The notes under the pieces: generated by a model
Seen by the model: the letters and a program-made list of their open reading frames with translations, nothing else
Told to the model about the DNA's origin: nothing
Database searches by the model: none
In this document: piece after piece, positions 5,266 to 13,425 of the stretch
Layout of the letters: the number at the start of each line of letters is the position of its first letter
Numbering within the stretch: position 1 is the first letter of the stretch
Translations under genes and position numbers: made by a program
Source of the DNA: an uncultured archaeon
GTDB lineage: Archaea; Asgardarchaeota; Lokiarchaeia; Sigyniarchaeales; SOKP01
Assembly (NCBI GenBank): GCA_964632315.1
Contig: CAZWEM010000005.1
Coordinates: forward strand, 32,001 to 96,000
DNA: 64,000 nt
Direction of reading: 5' to 3'

Positions 5266-8200
5266 TTAAGATGGTCGTTTTGTCATGATTTTTCCTTTCT
5301 TTTTCAAGAAGAATAAAACTGCTACCGCAGCTCCAACACTAGCGGGTATGACAATAGCTAATATTATTACTAAAGGATCTAATGGAGGTATATGAGAAGC
5401 TACCGGAACTTTCGTTGTTAACATTGTAGTATCGTACTGACTTAGTGATATCATAAATTGTGATATTCCATTTCCAGTGTCGTAGAATTCAAAGATTAGG
5501 TAAAAATGATCGGTGAATGTACCAAATTCTACAGTCGTATTTGCTACTTGATCGTTAAGAAGTAGCTGAATCTCACCATTAGGATTTGAACTATCTTGCC
5601 ATTTAAGGTCCTGCATTACATACAAATCATAATCCGAAACATTTTCTGTAGCTACTACTAATTGATTCCACTGATATGCAGATCCTTCATTTACTTCGAC
5701 AACAAAGTATGCTTGGTTAGAGGTTACTGTTGGTGTAATTTCTGTACTATTCATTGTGGCTATTAATCCGTAATTATAGTGTGGTGCTGAGTAATTACCA
5801 TAGGTAGTAGAAGTATAATTATTTATTTGGTATTTAAATAGGTTTGGAATAGGTGTTGTAGAGATATTATAACTTACTTGATGTCTATAAGTCCAGAAGT
5901 TTTCTATCGCAAATCTAATATTAATTCCACCAGTATGATCCCAATCATCTGGGATTATTAATAATTTGTACGTCCCAGGTTCGATTGCTTGCATATAAGG
6001 AGAACTAGAAGAAAAGAGCCATTGTTCATATGAAAAAGAATCATGCGCAGCTTCTTGATTCAAATATGGTACGTTTACATCGGAAGGTTGTTGAGTTAAT
6101 AGCCAGTAATCAGCATAATCATAACCATTTTCACCTATTAAGGCAAAATTCACGCTACCCGAAGTAGTTACATTTGATAATTGAATAAGATCGATATAGG
6201 GAATAGTTTCTCCAGCACCATCATAATCATCATCTACGTCAAATCTAAGCCAATAATAATCACTTTCATTTATATTAGGCAGATCAAAATTGCAACCCCG
6301 CTCCCACCAAGTAAAATCTGCATCACCATATATATTGCAAACCCACATTCCATTGCTTGAAAATTCACCAGTGGTATCGCTTGTTCTTGACAAGGCATAC
6401 CAATTATTATCATGCCAAACATCAACATTATTGTCGACACCTCCAGCTACACCGTATTGAGAAAGGGTAAAATGCATATCATGCCACTTATTTGGAAATG
6501 CTATATAGAGAAAATCTGAGTTAGATGTAAATGCGGGGAATGATTGAGACTCTACTGTCGCAATCGATGAATAATCGTAGTATTGCGAACCTAGTGGTTC
6601 TGAAGCATTATAATACACCACCGCTGCTGGATCAACGAGAGTTGGTAGTGTAGCTAAATTATCAGAGGCTAAAACGGTCGTATTCAATATATACTGTCCA
6701 GGTTCAGTAATCTCAAAATCTATAGCAAGAGCGTGTTTTAGACTATCATAATAATCATCGGGGTTAAAACTCAATTTAACATCTTGGGAAGGATAACGAG
6801 TAGGATAAGTTAAATCATTAATTGGTATCGTGCCATTTGCATTTTCTACAAACTTTGAACTAAGTTGAAATAATCCATCTTTTGTTTCGTCTGTATTTTT
6901 AATTATGGCTTTATATGTTCCAGCAGGCATATAATAATAGTAGAACCATTCAGATCCTACTTGTTTTGCTTTTATATATTCGTTAATATCATAACTTGCT
7001 AATCCTTTTGAATTCACGTAGATAAAAGCATTTGTGTTACCTAGAGCGTCTAGATAAGGATGACCAGGCGGATCACTCAAAGTTGTGAAATTAAATCTTA
7101 CAAATGAATCCTCTGGGACTGAAAATCGTATTGCCTTACTTTGATCCCTTGAAATTCTAATTGTAGTCAATGAGTCTCCAATGTTATATTTTACAGTGCT
7201 ATATTTACTCACATATAAAGAATATCTATACCAATCAGCGTAATCGGCATCCGTAAAAGAGATATATGCATTACCGCTAGAAGGAAGGTAGATCTCATGT
7301 GTTCCCATTCCAATCGAAGAACTTCGAAAATATCCATTGTTGGTTTTAGTCCAAATATATATTAGTGGTTCATACCCTGTAGCATAATCCCTACTAAGTT
7401 CTAATCTGAATAAATCTCCTCTTTTCCCATTGATAGCAAACCATTTTGACTGCCAATTAGCATGTTCTGAGTCACCAGTGCTTAAGAGATCATCACTATT
7501 ACCTCCAAAAACTAATTTATTTGATGATAATGAAGAGACAGATACGCCTAAGAACTCTAAATTAAGATAAGCAGGATGACCTAAAGTATGAGCAGCATAG
7601 ACCAATAAACGGTATGTTCCCGTTTCATAAGCCACAAATGAATAATAGTCAAAAACATCTACTGCAGGAGATACTGCATGAGATGTTGCAGTATTGAAGT
7701 CTAAATCTATCATTTTTCCAGAAGGAGAAAATAGATATTTTACATCTGGATTAATGTTAGCGGGATTATCAGTTAACCAATCAGCTTTTAATACTTTGGG
7801 TCCAGTTTTTCCAACGACTATATCAATCTGCATTGGAATAGAATGATTTAACGGAACTTTTAAGTTATCTCCCTCATCCATGACATAGTAATCAAAAACC
7901 GTATTTAATTTAAAGGGTGATAATGTATCCGCTTCAGCATTAAATGCAGAGACATTTAACCAATTTATGCTAGTCCAAGGATCAATATAGTCATTATTCG
8001 TAATGCTACCAACACCCCAATTGTCAAAATACCAGGGATAAACGATGGAAATATCATCTCCTGGAGCATCTACGGTTTCTGATTCTAATGGAGTTCCCAT
8101 CCAATCAGTCAATAGGAATTCTCCTTGATTTGATCCATCTATTGAGATTGTAGCAAGCATATTTGGCGATGGTAAAATAACACCATAGCCTAACGGATTC

Positions 8201-8340
8201 TCTTTTTCAAGGTTAAACGTTGCTCCATTTCCTCGTTTATGTGTTGCATAAGCAGGACTTAGACTTATTATATTGAAGAAAATAAATGTAACTAATCCCA
8301 TTCCTACTATAAATTTTCTTTTATTATTTGATGATTTCAT
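5266..8340 (-). CDS. Large membrane-anchored cell-surface glycoprotein (beta-sandwich/PPC-like repeats)
   Basis: Signal-peptide-like N-terminus, many NxS/T sequons, D/Y/N/S-rich, C-terminal TM helix plus KKK tail. Confidence 0.75.
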   Translation of the reverse strand: MKSSNNKRKFIVGMGLVTFIFFNIISLSPAYATHKRGNGATFNLEKENPLGYGVILPSPNMLATISIDGSNQGEFLLTDWMGTPLESETVDAPGDDISIVYPWYFDNWGVGSITNNDYIDPWTSINWLNVSAFNAEADTLSPFKLNTVFDYYVMDEGDNLKVPLNHSIPMQIDIVVGKTGPKVLKADWLTDNPANINPDVKYLFSPSGKMIDLDFNTATSHAVSPAVDVFDYYSFVAYETGTYRLLVYAAHTLGHPAYLNLEFLGVSVSSLSSNKLVFGGNSDDLLSTGDSEHANWQSKWFAINGKRGDLFRLELSRDYATGYEPLIYIWTKTNNGYFRSSSIGMGTHEIYLPSSGNAYISFTDADYADWYRYSLYVSKYSTVKYNIGDSLTTIRISRDQSKAIRFSVPEDSFVRFNFTTLSDPPGHPYLDALGNTNAFIYVNSKGLASYDINEYIKAKQVGSEWFYYYYMPAGTYKAIIKNTDETKDGLFQLSSKFVENANGTIPINDLTYPTRYPSQDVKLSFNPDDYYDSLKHALAIDFEITEPGQYILNTTVLASDNLATLPTLVDPAAVVYYNASEPLGSQYYDYSSIATVESQSFPAFTSNSDFLYIAFPNKWHDMHFTLSQYGVAGGVDNNVDVWHDNNWYALSRTSDTTGEFSSNGMWVCNIYGDADFTWWERGCNFDLPNINESDYYWLRFDVDDDYDGAGETIPYIDLIQLSNVTTSGSVNFALIGENGYDYADYWLLTQQPSDVNVPYLNQEAAHDSFSYEQWLFSSSSPYMQAIEPGTYKLLIIPDDWDHTGGINIRFAIENFWTYRHQVSYNISTTPIPNLFKYQINNYTSTTYGNYSAPHYNYGLIATMNSTEITPTVTSNQAYFVVEVNEGSAYQWNQLVVATENVSDYDLYVMQDLKWQDSSNPNGEIQLLLNDQVANTTVEFGTFTDHFYLIFEFYDTGNGISQFMISLSQYDTTMLTTKVPVASHIPPLDPLVIILAIVIPASVGAAVAVLFFLKKKGKIMTKRPS

Positions 8341-8608: not shown

Positions 8609-9040
8609 ATGAAAGAATTAGTTGAAGTTGGAATAGTTTTTCGAGGATTTATTTTAGTGAAACACCTATTTAAAAATGGGTTTGGTCATCAAGAGATCGA
8701 TCCTTGTAAGGATTTAAGAGGACCTTTTATCACAGCAATAAACTCATTTGCTCAGAATGCATTTAATAATTTATCTTTAGAATATTTAGAATCAAGTAAC
8801 AATCTATTCATATTTAAAGTTCATGAAATAAAAGCTCAAGATAGCGATTATCCTGAGCTTGTCATTTTGTACGGATTGACGGAACGAAAAAAAAAAGACC
8901 CCGAAAAAACAGTAAAAAAATTTCTTGAAAAATCAGAACCAATCATACAGCTTTTTATAACTAGGTATAATAATAAGGATTTAACGGAGTTAAGCCAATT
9001 TGAGCCATTTCAGGATGAAATAAAGGATTTTTTTGACTAA
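8609..9040 (+). CDS. Longin-like domain protein
   Basis: Strand-strand-helix start (GIVFRGFILV...DLRGPFITAINSFA), strands, terminal helices ending FEPFQDEIKDFFD, typical of Asgard longins. Confidence 0.65.
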   Translation: MKELVEVGIVFRGFILVKHLFKNGFGHQEIDPCKDLRGPFITAINSFAQNAFNNLSLEYLESSNNLFIFKVHEIKAQDSDYPELVILYGLTERKKKDPEKTVKKFLEKSEPIIQLFITRYNNKDLTELSQFEPFQDEIKDFFD

Positions 9041-10696
9041 TCATTTATTGACAAGACGCCAACCTTTAGGCTCAGAACGAGAGTATTCAATAATTCCTTG
9101 TTCTTTTAAAATATCTACCTGTTCCTCAACATCAGCTTCACTATAACCTAAAATGGCAATTTCTTGAACTATCTTAGTTCTAGTGGGCACTAGGTTATTA
9201 TTTTCGAGATAATGGATAATAATATAGCGTAGATTTTCATCAATTGTTAGCTGTTCTTCCGTTTTCCCCTCTTCTTTATGTAAAGCTCGGAAAAGATCTT
9301 CTCCTTTTGCTTTATTCTCTTCAATTGTAGCGGATTCGGTTTTCGGTTCGATTCCCTTGATGGCCCCTCCTTCTCCAATTTCTTCTTCTGAAAGGGTCCA
9401 CAGAGAATATGTGAGTTTTTCATACGATGAGGGTTTTTGATTTTTCATAAATTCAAATTCTTTAATGATATTCTCTTTTACATATCCCATCTTTTGAAGC
9501 TCTCTTATGACATCATCAAGAACCTTCTTATCTTCCAGGATCTTAAAAATATATTCACGGAGATTTGTTGGAACTATTTTTTGTGATGATTCTGTTTTTT
9601 CTTCATCAGCTTCAGGGGATTCTGGTTCTTTAATAGGGGATGGTGTATCTACCATATTGTTTATTATTTCTAGTTTTTCTTTTTCCCCCCATTCATAGTC
9701 CGAAATACAGCGGAGACTTCGATCATAACCACCATAAATAATATTTATCAAACCCTGCTCTGAATCAAAAACAGGAGAAACTATTTTTATAGATGTAGAA
9801 GTAGAAGTTTTCCATTTTAACTCTAAATCACTTGAATTTAATTGGGGATTGTGGTAGATTCTCAATGAGCCATCTGCACAACCTACTATTATCTCATTAG
9901 CGTTATCCCCATCAATGTCAGCAACTTTCAGTGAGATTGGTCTTCCTTCTTCGATTTTAATCGTACTCAACTCCTCTCCATTCGCGTTTAGAATCATTAT
10001 TATTGATTCATCTGTTCCAACAACCACATCATTATATCCATTGTTTGTAACATCTCCGATGTCAATTGCATTGATTTGAGAACTGAGATGTTTTTCCCAT
10101 AAAATGTCTGGTTTCGAGTCTTTAATGTGAATTAATTGTACTGTCCCATTTTTAGTCCCAATAACCAATCCATTTAGAGAATTTTCTTGTTCGGATAACA
10201 TTAAACAGCCTAAAGTACAGGAAGTAACCCATGAATCATAATATAATTCATAAAGAGGTTTTTTTGAACCAATATCTTTAAAAATTTTAAGGGTTTTATC
10301 TTCACCACCTAACATCAATTCAATATTCTCGTCATTAGTAAAATCTCCAGCAGTTACACATAAAACTTTTCCAGAACATCTGTAATTCATAATTGTAGCT
10401 AACTTGTTGATACCTTTAACAAATTTCAAAACAAGAAAATTACCATCACCGGCTCCGACCAAAATTTCATCGCAATTGTCTCCTGTAATATCTGCTGTAT
10501 AGGAACACCTACACCAACCATCAAAAGAAACACTATCTAGAATTTGCATATCCGTGTCCATTAGATAGAGTGTTTTATCGTGGCCTCCAAATACTAAAAA
10601 TGAATTACTTCCACATTTTAAGACTGAACAAGTCAAGACTGCTTCTGGAGCCTCAAAGATCCAGTTAAGATTGAAGCGCTTTCTTATAGTTGTCAT
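9041..10696 (-). CDS. FG-GAP/WD40 beta-propeller (BBS2/ITFG2-like) with C-terminal winged-helix domain(s)
   Basis: Repeats DITGDNCDEILVG, DFTNDENIELMLGGEDKTLKIF, DVTNNGYNDVVVG, DIDGDNANEIIVG; C-terminus PTRTKIVQEI...LKEQGIIEYSRSEPKGWRL; no signal peptide. Confidence 0.7.
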   Translation of the reverse strand: MTTIRKRFNLNWIFEAPEAVLTCSVLKCGSNSFLVFGGHDKTLYLMDTDMQILDSVSFDGWCRCSYTADITGDNCDEILVGAGDGNFLVLKFVKGINKLATIMNYRCSGKVLCVTAGDFTNDENIELMLGGEDKTLKIFKDIGSKKPLYELYYDSWVTSCTLGCLMLSEQENSLNGLVIGTKNGTVQLIHIKDSKPDILWEKHLSSQINAIDIGDVTNNGYNDVVVGTDESIIMILNANGEELSTIKIEEGRPISLKVADIDGDNANEIIVGCADGSLRIYHNPQLNSSDLELKWKTSTSTSIKIVSPVFDSEQGLINIIYGGYDRSLRCISDYEWGEKEKLEIINNMVDTPSPIKEPESPEADEEKTESSQKIVPTNLREYIFKILEDKKVLDDVIRELQKMGYVKENIIKEFEFMKNQKPSSYEKLTYSLWTLSEEEIGEGGAIKGIEPKTESATIEENKAKGEDLFRALHKEEGKTEEQLTIDENLRYIIIHYLENNNLVPTRTKIVQEIAILGYSEADVEEQVDILKEQGIIEYSRSEPKGWRLVNK

Positions 10697-10858
10697 GGTA
10701 TAGTGAAACTTTATATAGATTAGTATTATGAAACATAAAATTTAACTAATTAGTAATTTCATATAGAATTTATTCTTAATTTATTTAACAGTTTTGAAAA
10801 AATTATTTAAAATAATAAGAAGATAAAAAAAAGTAAATTAAATTTTTATAGAAGAGAA

Positions 10859-13051
10859 TTACAAACCTAATTGAGCATCACTAGGACTATATTTTCCAGT
10901 ACCATTAATTTCATACGTAATTTCTTTTCGATCTTCTGCTTCTAATTTATCAATAACCCATTTTAAAGTGTCGCTTCCAACTTCATCGGTTATTTCTGGT
11001 GTTTCTGAATAACTTCCATATTCAAAGCTGTCGGGTACTTTATCCATTAGAACTAAATTCTGAAGTGGCGCAGTACCGATATTTTCAACGATTAATGTTA
11101 TTCTGTAAGTTCCTAAATCTCCAACCGGTTGTACTTCTTTGCCTATTCTGAATCTTCTCCTTAAATGCAATGCTTCGATAACAGGTACTTCAGGACTGAA
11201 TTCTAGTTCCTGAGATACAGGATAGGTATTCGCCCTATAAATTATTTCGGATTCAAATCTAGCATCTTGTACAGGATTCATGCAGTGGATAGGATATTCA
11301 AATTGTAAGGTCGATTCAGGTTCAAACATCCCAGTACTCGAATTTCTCAAGTCTTTCAGTGATAAAGTGAATACACTACCATCAAATGACACAGCATCTG
11401 AACTTAATTCTAATTCATTCCTGTCCCATAAGAGTTTTATCTCATCTGCTTTCGGAGGCTGGAATTCATCATTGAAAAATTGTTGAGTTATTCTTACTTC
11501 ATTCAAAGGTGCAGATCCATTGTTGATAATTTTAAGAGTAGCAATGACATCCTTTTCCTTGTAAGTGGGCACTTGTTCTATGTCATAACTCATATCTCCA
11601 GTCATACTAGCAATTTCTAAGATAACATCAGAAATTGCAACAGAACCTTTGACCTGAGTTTGAAAATCAGGCATTACTCTAAACTCTAATTTCTTCCTGA
11701 AAGCAGGATAATCTTCAGATTCATACATCCATTTCTTAGAATGCCATTGTGCACCAGCAGGGAGCAACGGTACTTCATTAGGATCAATATCAACATATTT
11801 TGCGCTTTCATCTTCAGGAGAGTAAACATCTGCATTGAAGAGCTGGATAATAAACTCGGAAGCATTTTCAAAAACGAGCTTGCAATCCCAAATTTCCGGC
11901 TCCTCATCCCGTTCTACAGTATCGACAAAAAATCTATTTCGAGTGTATGCATCATATTTTTCGATATTCAATCCACCAGCGAACGAAGAAGATCCTTCAA
12001 ATGTAATCGCCACAGCACCTGTCTTTCTTGCAGTAATATCCGAAACTTTGATATTACTAGTAAATTTTAATACCGCAGTACGCTCTGGTTCCAATCTTTC
12101 TATCGTCCACACAACTTCATCTCCTTGAACATCAGCACTTCCTACGGATGTATTTCGAACCATAATATCAGTAAATTCATTAGGCAACTTCTTTACTACT
12201 TTTACATTAGTGATGGCTTTTTCAAACATTGATCTGAGTCCAATCGCAAACCATACCACATTTTCTTTATCAATTGAGATTCCAAACGATTCAAGCGAAT
12301 AGTCACTCGTACCTCCATCGCTATATGATTCATCATCCTCATCTTCTTCTTCCTCATCATCCTCATCTTCTTCTTCCTCATCATCCTCATCTTCTTCTTC
12401 CTCGTCATCCTCATCTTCTTCTTCTTCGACTTTTTTAACTTCAGACCCCGCTTTACTTGTCTTTGTTTTTAATTTAAGTAGATCATTTTCTATATCTCGA
12501 TTATTTAATACATCATCAGCATTAGGTAATGTGTTTACATATTCTTTTACTAATAAAAGATTAGGTACTTCATCCTTAATTAAAAATTCGTGAGTTTCAA
12601 CATTCGTATCCTCGTCAGTACCTAATTCTTGAATCTTTATGTTTTTTGATTTTAGATCTGTTTTTTCAATATTTTTCAGTTCAATATCAATATCCCATAA
12701 TCTATCTTCTTTGGAGGGATTTTCTACGTTTAATTTTCCTTGGAAGTTCATCGATTCGATATTAGATTCATGATCAAGTTCCACATCGACATCTTCGACA
12801 ATTTTTACTATCCCTAAAAGACCTTCCCGATTACCATCCTTTAAAAGTATAGAGCCTTCTAATGCTCCTGTATCCTTGTCATATGTTTCGATAACAGGAG
12901 TAGATAAATCTCGATCAACTAATGTTACCTTACCTTCATCCAATTGTGATCTCTTTAATCCTTCAGCTACTTTCGATTCCTCTGCTTCTGACGAGTCCCA
13001 TCCATACTTACGATCTGGTTCTTTTGACTTACTTCTTTTTCTGCGTCCCAT
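10859..13051 (-). CDS. Cytoplasmic multi-beta-sandwich protein with mu-homology-like domain, acidic repeat and DUF11/Ig-like domains
   Basis: No signal peptide; VKIVEDVDVEL...MNFQGKLNV and TSVGSA...VVWTIERL resemble adaptor mu/delta-COP C-terminal domain; C-terminal DUF11-like LxVENIG...DKVP...LKWVIDKL. Confidence 0.55.
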   Translation of the reverse strand: MGRRKRSKSKEPDRKYGWDSSEAEESKVAEGLKRSQLDEGKVTLVDRDLSTPVIETYDKDTGALEGSILLKDGNREGLLGIVKIVEDVDVELDHESNIESMNFQGKLNVENPSKEDRLWDIDIELKNIEKTDLKSKNIKIQELGTDEDTNVETHEFLIKDEVPNLLLVKEYVNTLPNADDVLNNRDIENDLLKLKTKTSKAGSEVKKVEEEEDEDDEEEEDEDDEEEEDEDDEEEEDEDDESYSDGGTSDYSLESFGISIDKENVVWFAIGLRSMFEKAITNVKVVKKLPNEFTDIMVRNTSVGSADVQGDEVVWTIERLEPERTAVLKFTSNIKVSDITARKTGAVAITFEGSSSFAGGLNIEKYDAYTRNRFFVDTVERDEEPEIWDCKLVFENASEFIIQLFNADVYSPEDESAKYVDIDPNEVPLLPAGAQWHSKKWMYESEDYPAFRKKLEFRVMPDFQTQVKGSVAISDVILEIASMTGDMSYDIEQVPTYKEKDVIATLKIINNGSAPLNEVRITQQFFNDEFQPPKADEIKLLWDRNELELSSDAVSFDGSVFTLSLKDLRNSSTGMFEPESTLQFEYPIHCMNPVQDARFESEIIYRANTYPVSQELEFSPEVPVIEALHLRRRFRIGKEVQPVGDLGTYRITLIVENIGTAPLQNLVLMDKVPDSFEYGSYSETPEITDEVGSDTLKWVIDKLEAEDRKEITYEINGTGKYSPSDAQLGL
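12330..12427 (-). repeat. 24-bp in-frame tandem repeat (about 4 copies) encoding EEEEDEDD
   Basis: Plus-strand unit TCATCCTCATCTTCTTCTTCCTCA repeated, near-perfect. Confidence 0.9.
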
Positions 13052-13230: not shown

Positions 13231-13425
13231 TTAAATTATTCGTTTCTTAAAGTCATTATGCTTGTGTGGATTCATATCGGGCTCAATAAATTTATGCCCA
13301 CACATCGGGCACACATTAATCTTTTTTTTTGATTTCGGTTTAAAAGGTTTAAAGCTATAACCACAGACTGGACAAGTTTTAATTAATCTATTATCAATTC
13401 CTTCAATTTTTATTTTTTTTGCCAT
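13231..13425 (-). CDS. Small zinc-ribbon protein
   Basis: CPVCG and CPMCG pairs. Confidence 0.7.
   Translation of the reverse strand: MAKKIKIEGIDNRLIKTCPVCGYSFKPFKPKSKKKINVCPMCGHKFIEPDMNPHKHNDFKKRII

Follow-up and report, generated by a model that had tools for sequence, protein, structure and literature searches.

A mu-homology-domain protein and a BBS2/BBS7-type propeller as a candidate adaptor-like gene pair in Lokiarchaeia

Do the parts from which eukaryotic adaptor and coat complexes are built occur as neighbouring genes in an archaeon, and do they belong together there? The question is raised by a locus of an uncultured Lokiarchaeia archaeon (GenBank assembly GCA_964632315.1, contig CAZWEM010000005.1, positions 32,001 to 96,000), a stretch of 64,000 nucleotides that is called the window below and whose own numbering is used throughout. 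Three adjacent genes in it encode a stand-alone longin-domain protein of 143 amino acids (8609-9040, plus strand), a β-propeller protein of 551 amino acids (9041-10696, minus strand) and a protein of 730 amino acids (10859-13051, minus strand). A sequence-only reading had proposed these three open reading frames (ORFs), all of which are present, as a pre-fusion module for membrane trafficking. The folds that it expected are found, and the unit that is kept and lost together is the pair formed by the propeller gene and the gene for the 730-residue protein, which contains a mu-homology domain (MHD), whereas the longin gene is kept or lost independently of this pair, in both directions. The named homologues of the proteins belong to Promethearchaeota. 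On the Kyte-Doolittle scale, averaged over 19 residues, no stretch of any of the three exceeds a hydrophobicity of 1.4, in agreement with the earlier remark that the trio lacks signal peptides.

Folds and domain order of the three proteins

The 730-residue protein was modelled with AlphaFold2 (predicted local distance difference test score, pLDDT, 74.5) and aligned to 48,161 solved chains, of which the nine best are all MHDs (Z 14.5-17.8). The matches include mu4 (Z 17.4), mu3 (16.8), delta-COP (16.2), mu1 (15.7) and SGIP1 (15.1), and the best mu2 chain aligns over 225 residues with a Z of 18.9 and a root-mean-square deviation (rmsd) of 3.5 Å, pairing residues 76-475 of the model (11627-12826, minus strand) with mu2 169-435. 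In the model the MHD is complete, consisting of two β-sandwich subdomains, one nested in the other, with the first and last strands paired. The same nested two-sandwich fold is common to the mu subunits of the adaptor protein (AP) complexes AP-1 to AP-4, delta-COP and the muniscins SGIP1 and Syp1 (PF00928), to which the model aligns with Z 13-19 and an rmsd of about 3 Å over 210-230 residues. The alignment spans the two nested subdomains alike, so that the likeness goes beyond a generic immunoglobulin (Ig) match. The sequence-only reading had called the protein mu-homology-like and had named the absence of an MHD fold among the grounds for giving up its proposal; the fold is there instead.

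Around and within this domain lie further elements, all encoded on the minus strand. The protein begins with a basic-aromatic N-terminus, and its residues 1-75 are mostly of low confidence in the model and are not a longin. An acidic, disordered insertion (residues 207-250; 12302-12433; pLDDT below 50; 36 Asp or Glu in residues 200-250) is specific to family f1, that of the window genome, and absent from the orthologues of family f2. A conserved, β-rich insertion at about residues 372-460 (11672-11938), with six strands of pLDDT 53-66 and many invariant residues, is probably an extra small sandwich. The MHD is followed by an Ig-like sandwich (residues 481-629; 11165-11611) with Z 11-14 to pilin, adhesin and cohesin domains, and by a C-terminal DUF11-type Ig sandwich (residues 632-725; 10877-11158) that weakly resembles the gamma-adaptin ear.

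At the sequence level the signal to known MHDs is weak and lies in the first strands and subdomain B. Pfam finds only DUF11 in the protein itself and does not match PF00928, which is carried by many of its close homologues; the orthologues P0116 (34.5 bits) and L064 (47.4 bits) exceed the PF00928 cut-off of 31.6 in subdomain B only. With a family-wide profile, the best PDB match is the gamma1-adaptin appendage, to the last domain (E 0.0012), followed by mu3, mu2 and mu1, to subdomain B; up to E 1, 29 of the 31 matches are adaptor mu or gamma-ear chains or chimeras, with one Ig-repeat protein apart. A weak likeness of the C-terminal sandwich to the Ig-like appendages, which the sequence-only reading had also brought in, finds support at the level of the family profile. 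Matches to Alpha_adaptinC2 are weak (E 0.03-0.05, in three relatives), the C-terminal domain also matching DUF11, and gamma-ear structures lie outside the best 50 structural matches, the lists being filled by other domains. Two further searches were set aside: Foldseek on the whole model is led by multi-Ig proteins at rmsd 17-54 Å, judged to be artefacts of stringing sandwiches together, and a single-sequence PDB search returned only matches to acidic stretches.

Whether the MHD keeps a known cargo pocket can be read from the alignment with mu2. If its strands are ungapped between the end points (76 with 169, 475 with 435), Lys83 falls at the register of mu2 Asp176 and mu4 Asp190, and Pro461 at that of mu2 Trp421. 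Asp176 and Trp421 are residues of the YxxPhi pocket, and on this reading the modelled protein does not keep the pocket residue; Asp stands in the Lys83 column in 11 of 16 Asgard-wide paralogues. Delta-COP also departs at the pocket positions, so the mismatch does not exclude other motifs.

The 551-residue protein starts with a propeller (residues 1-340; 9677-10696, minus strand). It scores above the Pfam cut-off for Beta-prop_BBS7 (8e-23), BBS2_Mid (3e-12), Itfg2 (6e-12) and FG-GAP_3 (2e-11), and the best PDB matches of a 20-sequence family profile are BBS2 (6e-14), ITFG2 of KICSTOR (5.5e-13) and BBS7 (2e-8). Judged by these profile matches, it is predicted to be of the BBS2/BBS7 type, as had been suggested, although the BBS/ITFG2 score may be driven by FG-GAP loops, which are widespread among prokaryotes. 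Four Dx[DN]xDG-like loops (at residues 69, 118, 215 and 260) resemble those with which BBS2 binds calcium (PMC7018513); D69, D118 and D260 are invariant in 20 orthologues, and by analogy the loops may bind calcium here as well. After their propellers BBS2, BBS7 and BBS9 continue with a helix, GAE, platform and coiled coil, whereas the 551-residue protein has two winged-helix-like repeats (9047-9592, minus strand) instead of this BBSome-core layout. The first (residues 369-436) is degenerate and the second (478-550) carries the wing motif YSRSxPxGW; matches of the tail to LexA, CggR and MCM winged helices are weak and below the Pfam cut-off (E 0.004-0.1). Orthologues have one to four such repeats, the number rising to four in other families, and outside the order of the window genome no propeller with such a tail was found. 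In genome G044 the propeller has no winged-helix tail, and a separate 235-residue protein elsewhere (L158:7425-8132) carries the same repeat.

The model of the 143-residue protein (pLDDT 81) matches longin domains best, with Z up to 12.5, and its predicted five-stranded sheet, flanked by a single helix on one face and by a pair of helices on the opposite face, places it in the longin superfamily, as the sequence-only reading had it. The longins of TRAPP, Fuzzy (CPLANE) and VAMP7 match with Z 11.6-12.5; a Loki roadblock-longin structure (Z 11.4) and Mon1-Ccz1 are further matches, the whole set spanning Z 10-12.5, and the longin fold is shared with Asgard longin/roadblock proteins. Those of AP and COPI come lower (Z 9-10.4, about 10 for AP mu and sigma), below TRAPP, Fuzzy, VAMP7 and the Loki structure. 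The protein is therefore not specifically mu- or sigma-like, and it is not a sigma- or zeta-type small subunit tied to the MHD. Searches of Pfam, NCBIfam and PDB sequences did not identify it, and Foldseek gave only E-values above 0.001. Three more longin paralogues occur in the window genome, and the profile used picked up members of this one's orthologous group in family f1 alone. At four loci of the related genus g20, where the pair is absent (L103-L105 and L107), the longin gene stands head to head with a Ras-like GTPase gene.

Conservation and loss of the gene pair

How these genes stay together was followed across family f1 and the further families f2 and f3. The sequence-only reading had asked for conservation of the neighbourhood, and it is found: the trio lies on one contig in 30 of the 37 genomes of the genus, five more being interrupted by contig ends. 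The longin and propeller genes abut at 9040/9041 with no gap, as had been noted; what had gone unmentioned is that the longin gene is on the plus strand and the other two are on the minus strand, so that stop codon meets stop codon. The same convergent junction, with a gap of 0-22 nucleotides, is seen in relatives.

The MHD and propeller genes are adjacent in family f1, and in f2 and f3 they lie within 6 kb of each other in 11 of 12 decidable genomes (G047 being the twelfth, and three more undecidable), despite inversions and an identity of 23-38%. They are the only part of the window's neighbourhood found in the f2 and f3 loci, and a profile search found no longin orthologue beside them there. 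In f2 a gelsolin gene, mostly together with a TFB gene, adjoins the propeller gene (L064, L066, L067, L069, L072, L075 and L112). Locus L070 (4754-14063; genome G038, assembly gapped) holds, within 10 kb, a propeller gene, a divergent second MHD-family gene, a 279-residue gene whose start looks longin-like by eye, and a long-form MHD gene.

The two genes are also lost together. Profile searches recovered neither gene in genera g19 and g20 or in genome G174 (genomes 89-100% complete), and in G079, G090, G100, G160, G177, G206 and G174 the gap has closed, the longin gene remaining in place beside the flanking metabolic genes. A tree built from flanking proteins (midpoint-rooted, 15 rows, without G053, for which there was too little sequence) puts g19 beside a pair-bearing genome (bootstrap 99) and G174 beside a propeller-bearing genome (100), which indicates at least two separate losses of the pair. 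Conversely, G001 and G003 keep the pair intact and lack the longin gene at the site. Since the longin gene dissociates from the pair both ways, the unit is MHD plus propeller, and reading the longin and MHD proteins as a split mu subunit is unsupported.

As a background, of the non-operon neighbour pairs of the f2 and f3 genomes 9 of 161 stay within 6 kb in the window genome, and of the operon-like ones 9 of 23; two of the nine retained non-operon pairs are this MHD/propeller pair. The control is rough and suggestive only, because orthology was taken from best hits and related genomes do not count as independent. In the 162-nucleotide spacer between the two genes (10697-10858, minus strand), a T8 run follows the MHD stop codon and a TATA-like box lies about 25 nucleotides before the propeller start, which suggests that the genes are transcribed separately. 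Runs of 7-14 T occur in all 28 scored orthologous spacers, a count weakened by the AT-rich background, and a sigma-70 promoter scan, with a model ill-suited to archaea, was at chance level. Upstream of the MHD gene, a zinc-ribbon ORF of 64 amino acids (13231-13425, minus strand) is present in 27 of 28 genus loci and is retained in G174, where the pair is lost. On the longin side, the window encodes a 1024-residue protein (5266-8340, minus strand) with a signal-like N-terminus, a C-terminal membrane anchor and no Pfam or NCBIfam match; none of the four genus loci examined has a counterpart of it.

What the pair may do

We tentatively propose, at a little under an even chance, that the MHD protein and the propeller work together as a two-protein cytoplasmic adaptor or scaffold, a proposal that builds on the folds, the domain order, the gene linkage, the joint loss and the independence of the longin. 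Within an Asgard-wide MHD-Ig-Ig family the MHD protein is a paralogue specific to its lineage, and the pair belongs to the order Promethearchaeales. By analogy with the eukaryotic domains, the MHD and the ear-like sandwiches may bind short motifs in other proteins, and the basic-aromatic N-terminus may anchor the complex on an anionic membrane. The propeller, possibly calcium-bound, could supply a second docking surface, and the two proteins may be physical partners. As far as its loci show, the pair is not a vesicle coat of a known type, since no solenoid trunk or GTPase travels with the pair and the YxxPhi pocket residue is not kept.

Several facts weigh against a shared function and fit two old neighbours with separate jobs, held in place by gene-order inertia and short local inversions. 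Adjacent genes can go in one deletion without any shared function, so that each joint loss may be a single deletion; the pair is convergent in most f2 genomes; and the TFB and gelsolin genes travel with the f2 propeller as equally stable neighbours, which indicates gene-order inertia there. The T run and the TATA-like box point to separate transcripts, the background survival of non-operon neighbour pairs is about 4-6%, and other MHD-family members function without such a propeller neighbour. The pair also has exceptions: G047 has the propeller and no MHD gene for about 5 kb downstream, and in G169 the propeller gene is intact and the MHD gene is present in pieces only. However, nothing else of the window's neighbourhood is found in the f2 and f3 loci, and at least two separate losses took both genes while sparing the longin gene and, in G174, the zinc-ribbon gene on the opposite flank. 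Mere neighbourhood is somewhat unlikely, though it carries real weight.

A different job for the pair, in signalling or regulation linked to nucleic acids rather than in membrane traffic, is distinctly improbable. The pair would then be a scaffold resembling KICSTOR, or the winged helices would hold the propeller on DNA or RNA; ITFG2 scores equal to BBS2, the tail has a basic wing and weak matches to DNA-binding winged helices, the TFB gene adjoins the propeller in f2, and another MHD-family paralogue lies within a chemotaxis cluster. Yet those winged-helix matches stay below the Pfam cut-off, in archaeal ESCRT loci winged helices act in protein binding as well (PMC10936438), and no GATOR-like or kinase genes are linked to the pair. 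Least probable, and very unlikely in our view, is the three-gene pre-fusion module first proposed, a split mu subunit plus propeller. All its folds are right, and the trio is kept in several sister genera besides the genus itself; but the longin is on the opposite strand, is not specifically mu- or sigma-like, is missing beside intact pairs in G001 and G003, was not found by profile beside the pair in f2 and f3, remains where the pair is gone, and in pair-less g20 faces a Ras-like GTPase gene. In addition, none of 150 representatives of the MHD family is fused to a longin or propeller (A3 and A4 profiles, of which A3 is narrow), and the Asgard-wide paralogue has neither neighbour in 16 loci.

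The wider family and eukaryotic adaptors

The two-protein adaptor or scaffold proposed above has to be set against known systems. Compared with mu subunits, the 730-residue protein has no N-terminal longin in the same chain, as AP and COPI medium subunits do, and has two insertions and two extra C-terminal Ig sandwiches; it is very acidic, has Lys83 at the register of mu2 Asp176 and is not linked to trunk subunits. Within the window and the loci of relatives (the rest of the genome was not searched), no solenoid gene of the kind that AP, COPI and TSET possess was recognised near the pair. The Halo_adaptin loci and the Meth_adaptin loci of archaeal ESCRT systems also combine propellers, adaptin-like Ig domains and winged helices (PMC10936438), but theirs are appendage domains rather than MHDs, and no Vps4 or ESCRT-III was recognised near the pair here. 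At the level of folds the locus resembles an adaptor module, and it belongs neither to the AP/COPI medium subunits nor to the BBSome.

The MHD family occurs in 163 of 201 Asgard genomes. The window's protein falls in a long-form clade (support 1.0), and the window genome also has the widespread form (about 600-700 amino acids) on contig C13. This Asgard-wide paralogue most often adjoins a gene of the metallo-β-lactamase fold, in several families (L085:7763-9541 and six more loci). Another paralogue (L095:7920-9941, genome G234, contig C3) lies between CheA and a CheW-CheC fusion in the chemotaxis cluster mentioned above, and several "MGFK" representatives are similar to it. In 18 long relatives the additions are HEAT, NACHT, coiled-coil or proline-rich regions, with no propeller and no longin; among fusions to the family core, P0402 and L093:7804-10008 carry N-terminal HEAT repeats, a trunk-plus-MHD layout, and P0381 a NACHT-like NTPase region. 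Members in Poseidoniales (L116-L119, L121-L147) have a proline-rich N-terminus and a C-terminal zinc ribbon and sit among housekeeping genes, beside a GPN-loop GTPase (ATP_bind_1) and EMC3/TMCO1.

Parts of this picture are already known. Supplementary Table 3 of Eme et al. 2023 (PMC10307638) lists Asgard candidates for Adap_comp_sub (PF00928), among them Lokiarchaeote_ABR13_03420 and TEKIR_5S, which in a comparison by eye share N-terminal and core motifs with the 730-residue protein and so belong to the same family; that study notes that adaptor domains in Asgards are unfused, and in the portion of it drawn on here the candidates come without structure, domain layout or propeller linkage. An Asgard BBS7/ITFG2 cluster has likewise been catalogued (bioRxiv 10.64898/2026.10.28.762692), and longin/roadblock families are known to be numerous in Asgards (bioRxiv 10.1101/2020.10.19.343400). 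A literature search, with most subscription papers outside its reach, found no paper on a linkage of MHD and propeller, the MHD-plus-ear layout, Poseidoniales members or an Asgard "mu homology domain".

These observations bear on the assembly of adaptor and coat complexes out of archaeal parts. A near-universal Asgard family has the full MHD fold and, within one chain, an ear-like domain as well, and a paralogue from it goes with a BBS/ITFG2-like propeller; the Poseidoniales members extend the family beyond Asgards. The locus also carries a warning, namely that a longin beside an MHD gene need not mean a split mu subunit. In the boldest view, which we consider unlikely though worth stating, the pair would truly form a complex in Lokiarchaeia that associates with membranes and binds cargo, an archaeal sister to the modules that were later combined in adaptors, COPI and the BBSome, and the MHD-plus-ear family of Asgards and Poseidoniales would be the archaeal source of both eukaryotic domains.

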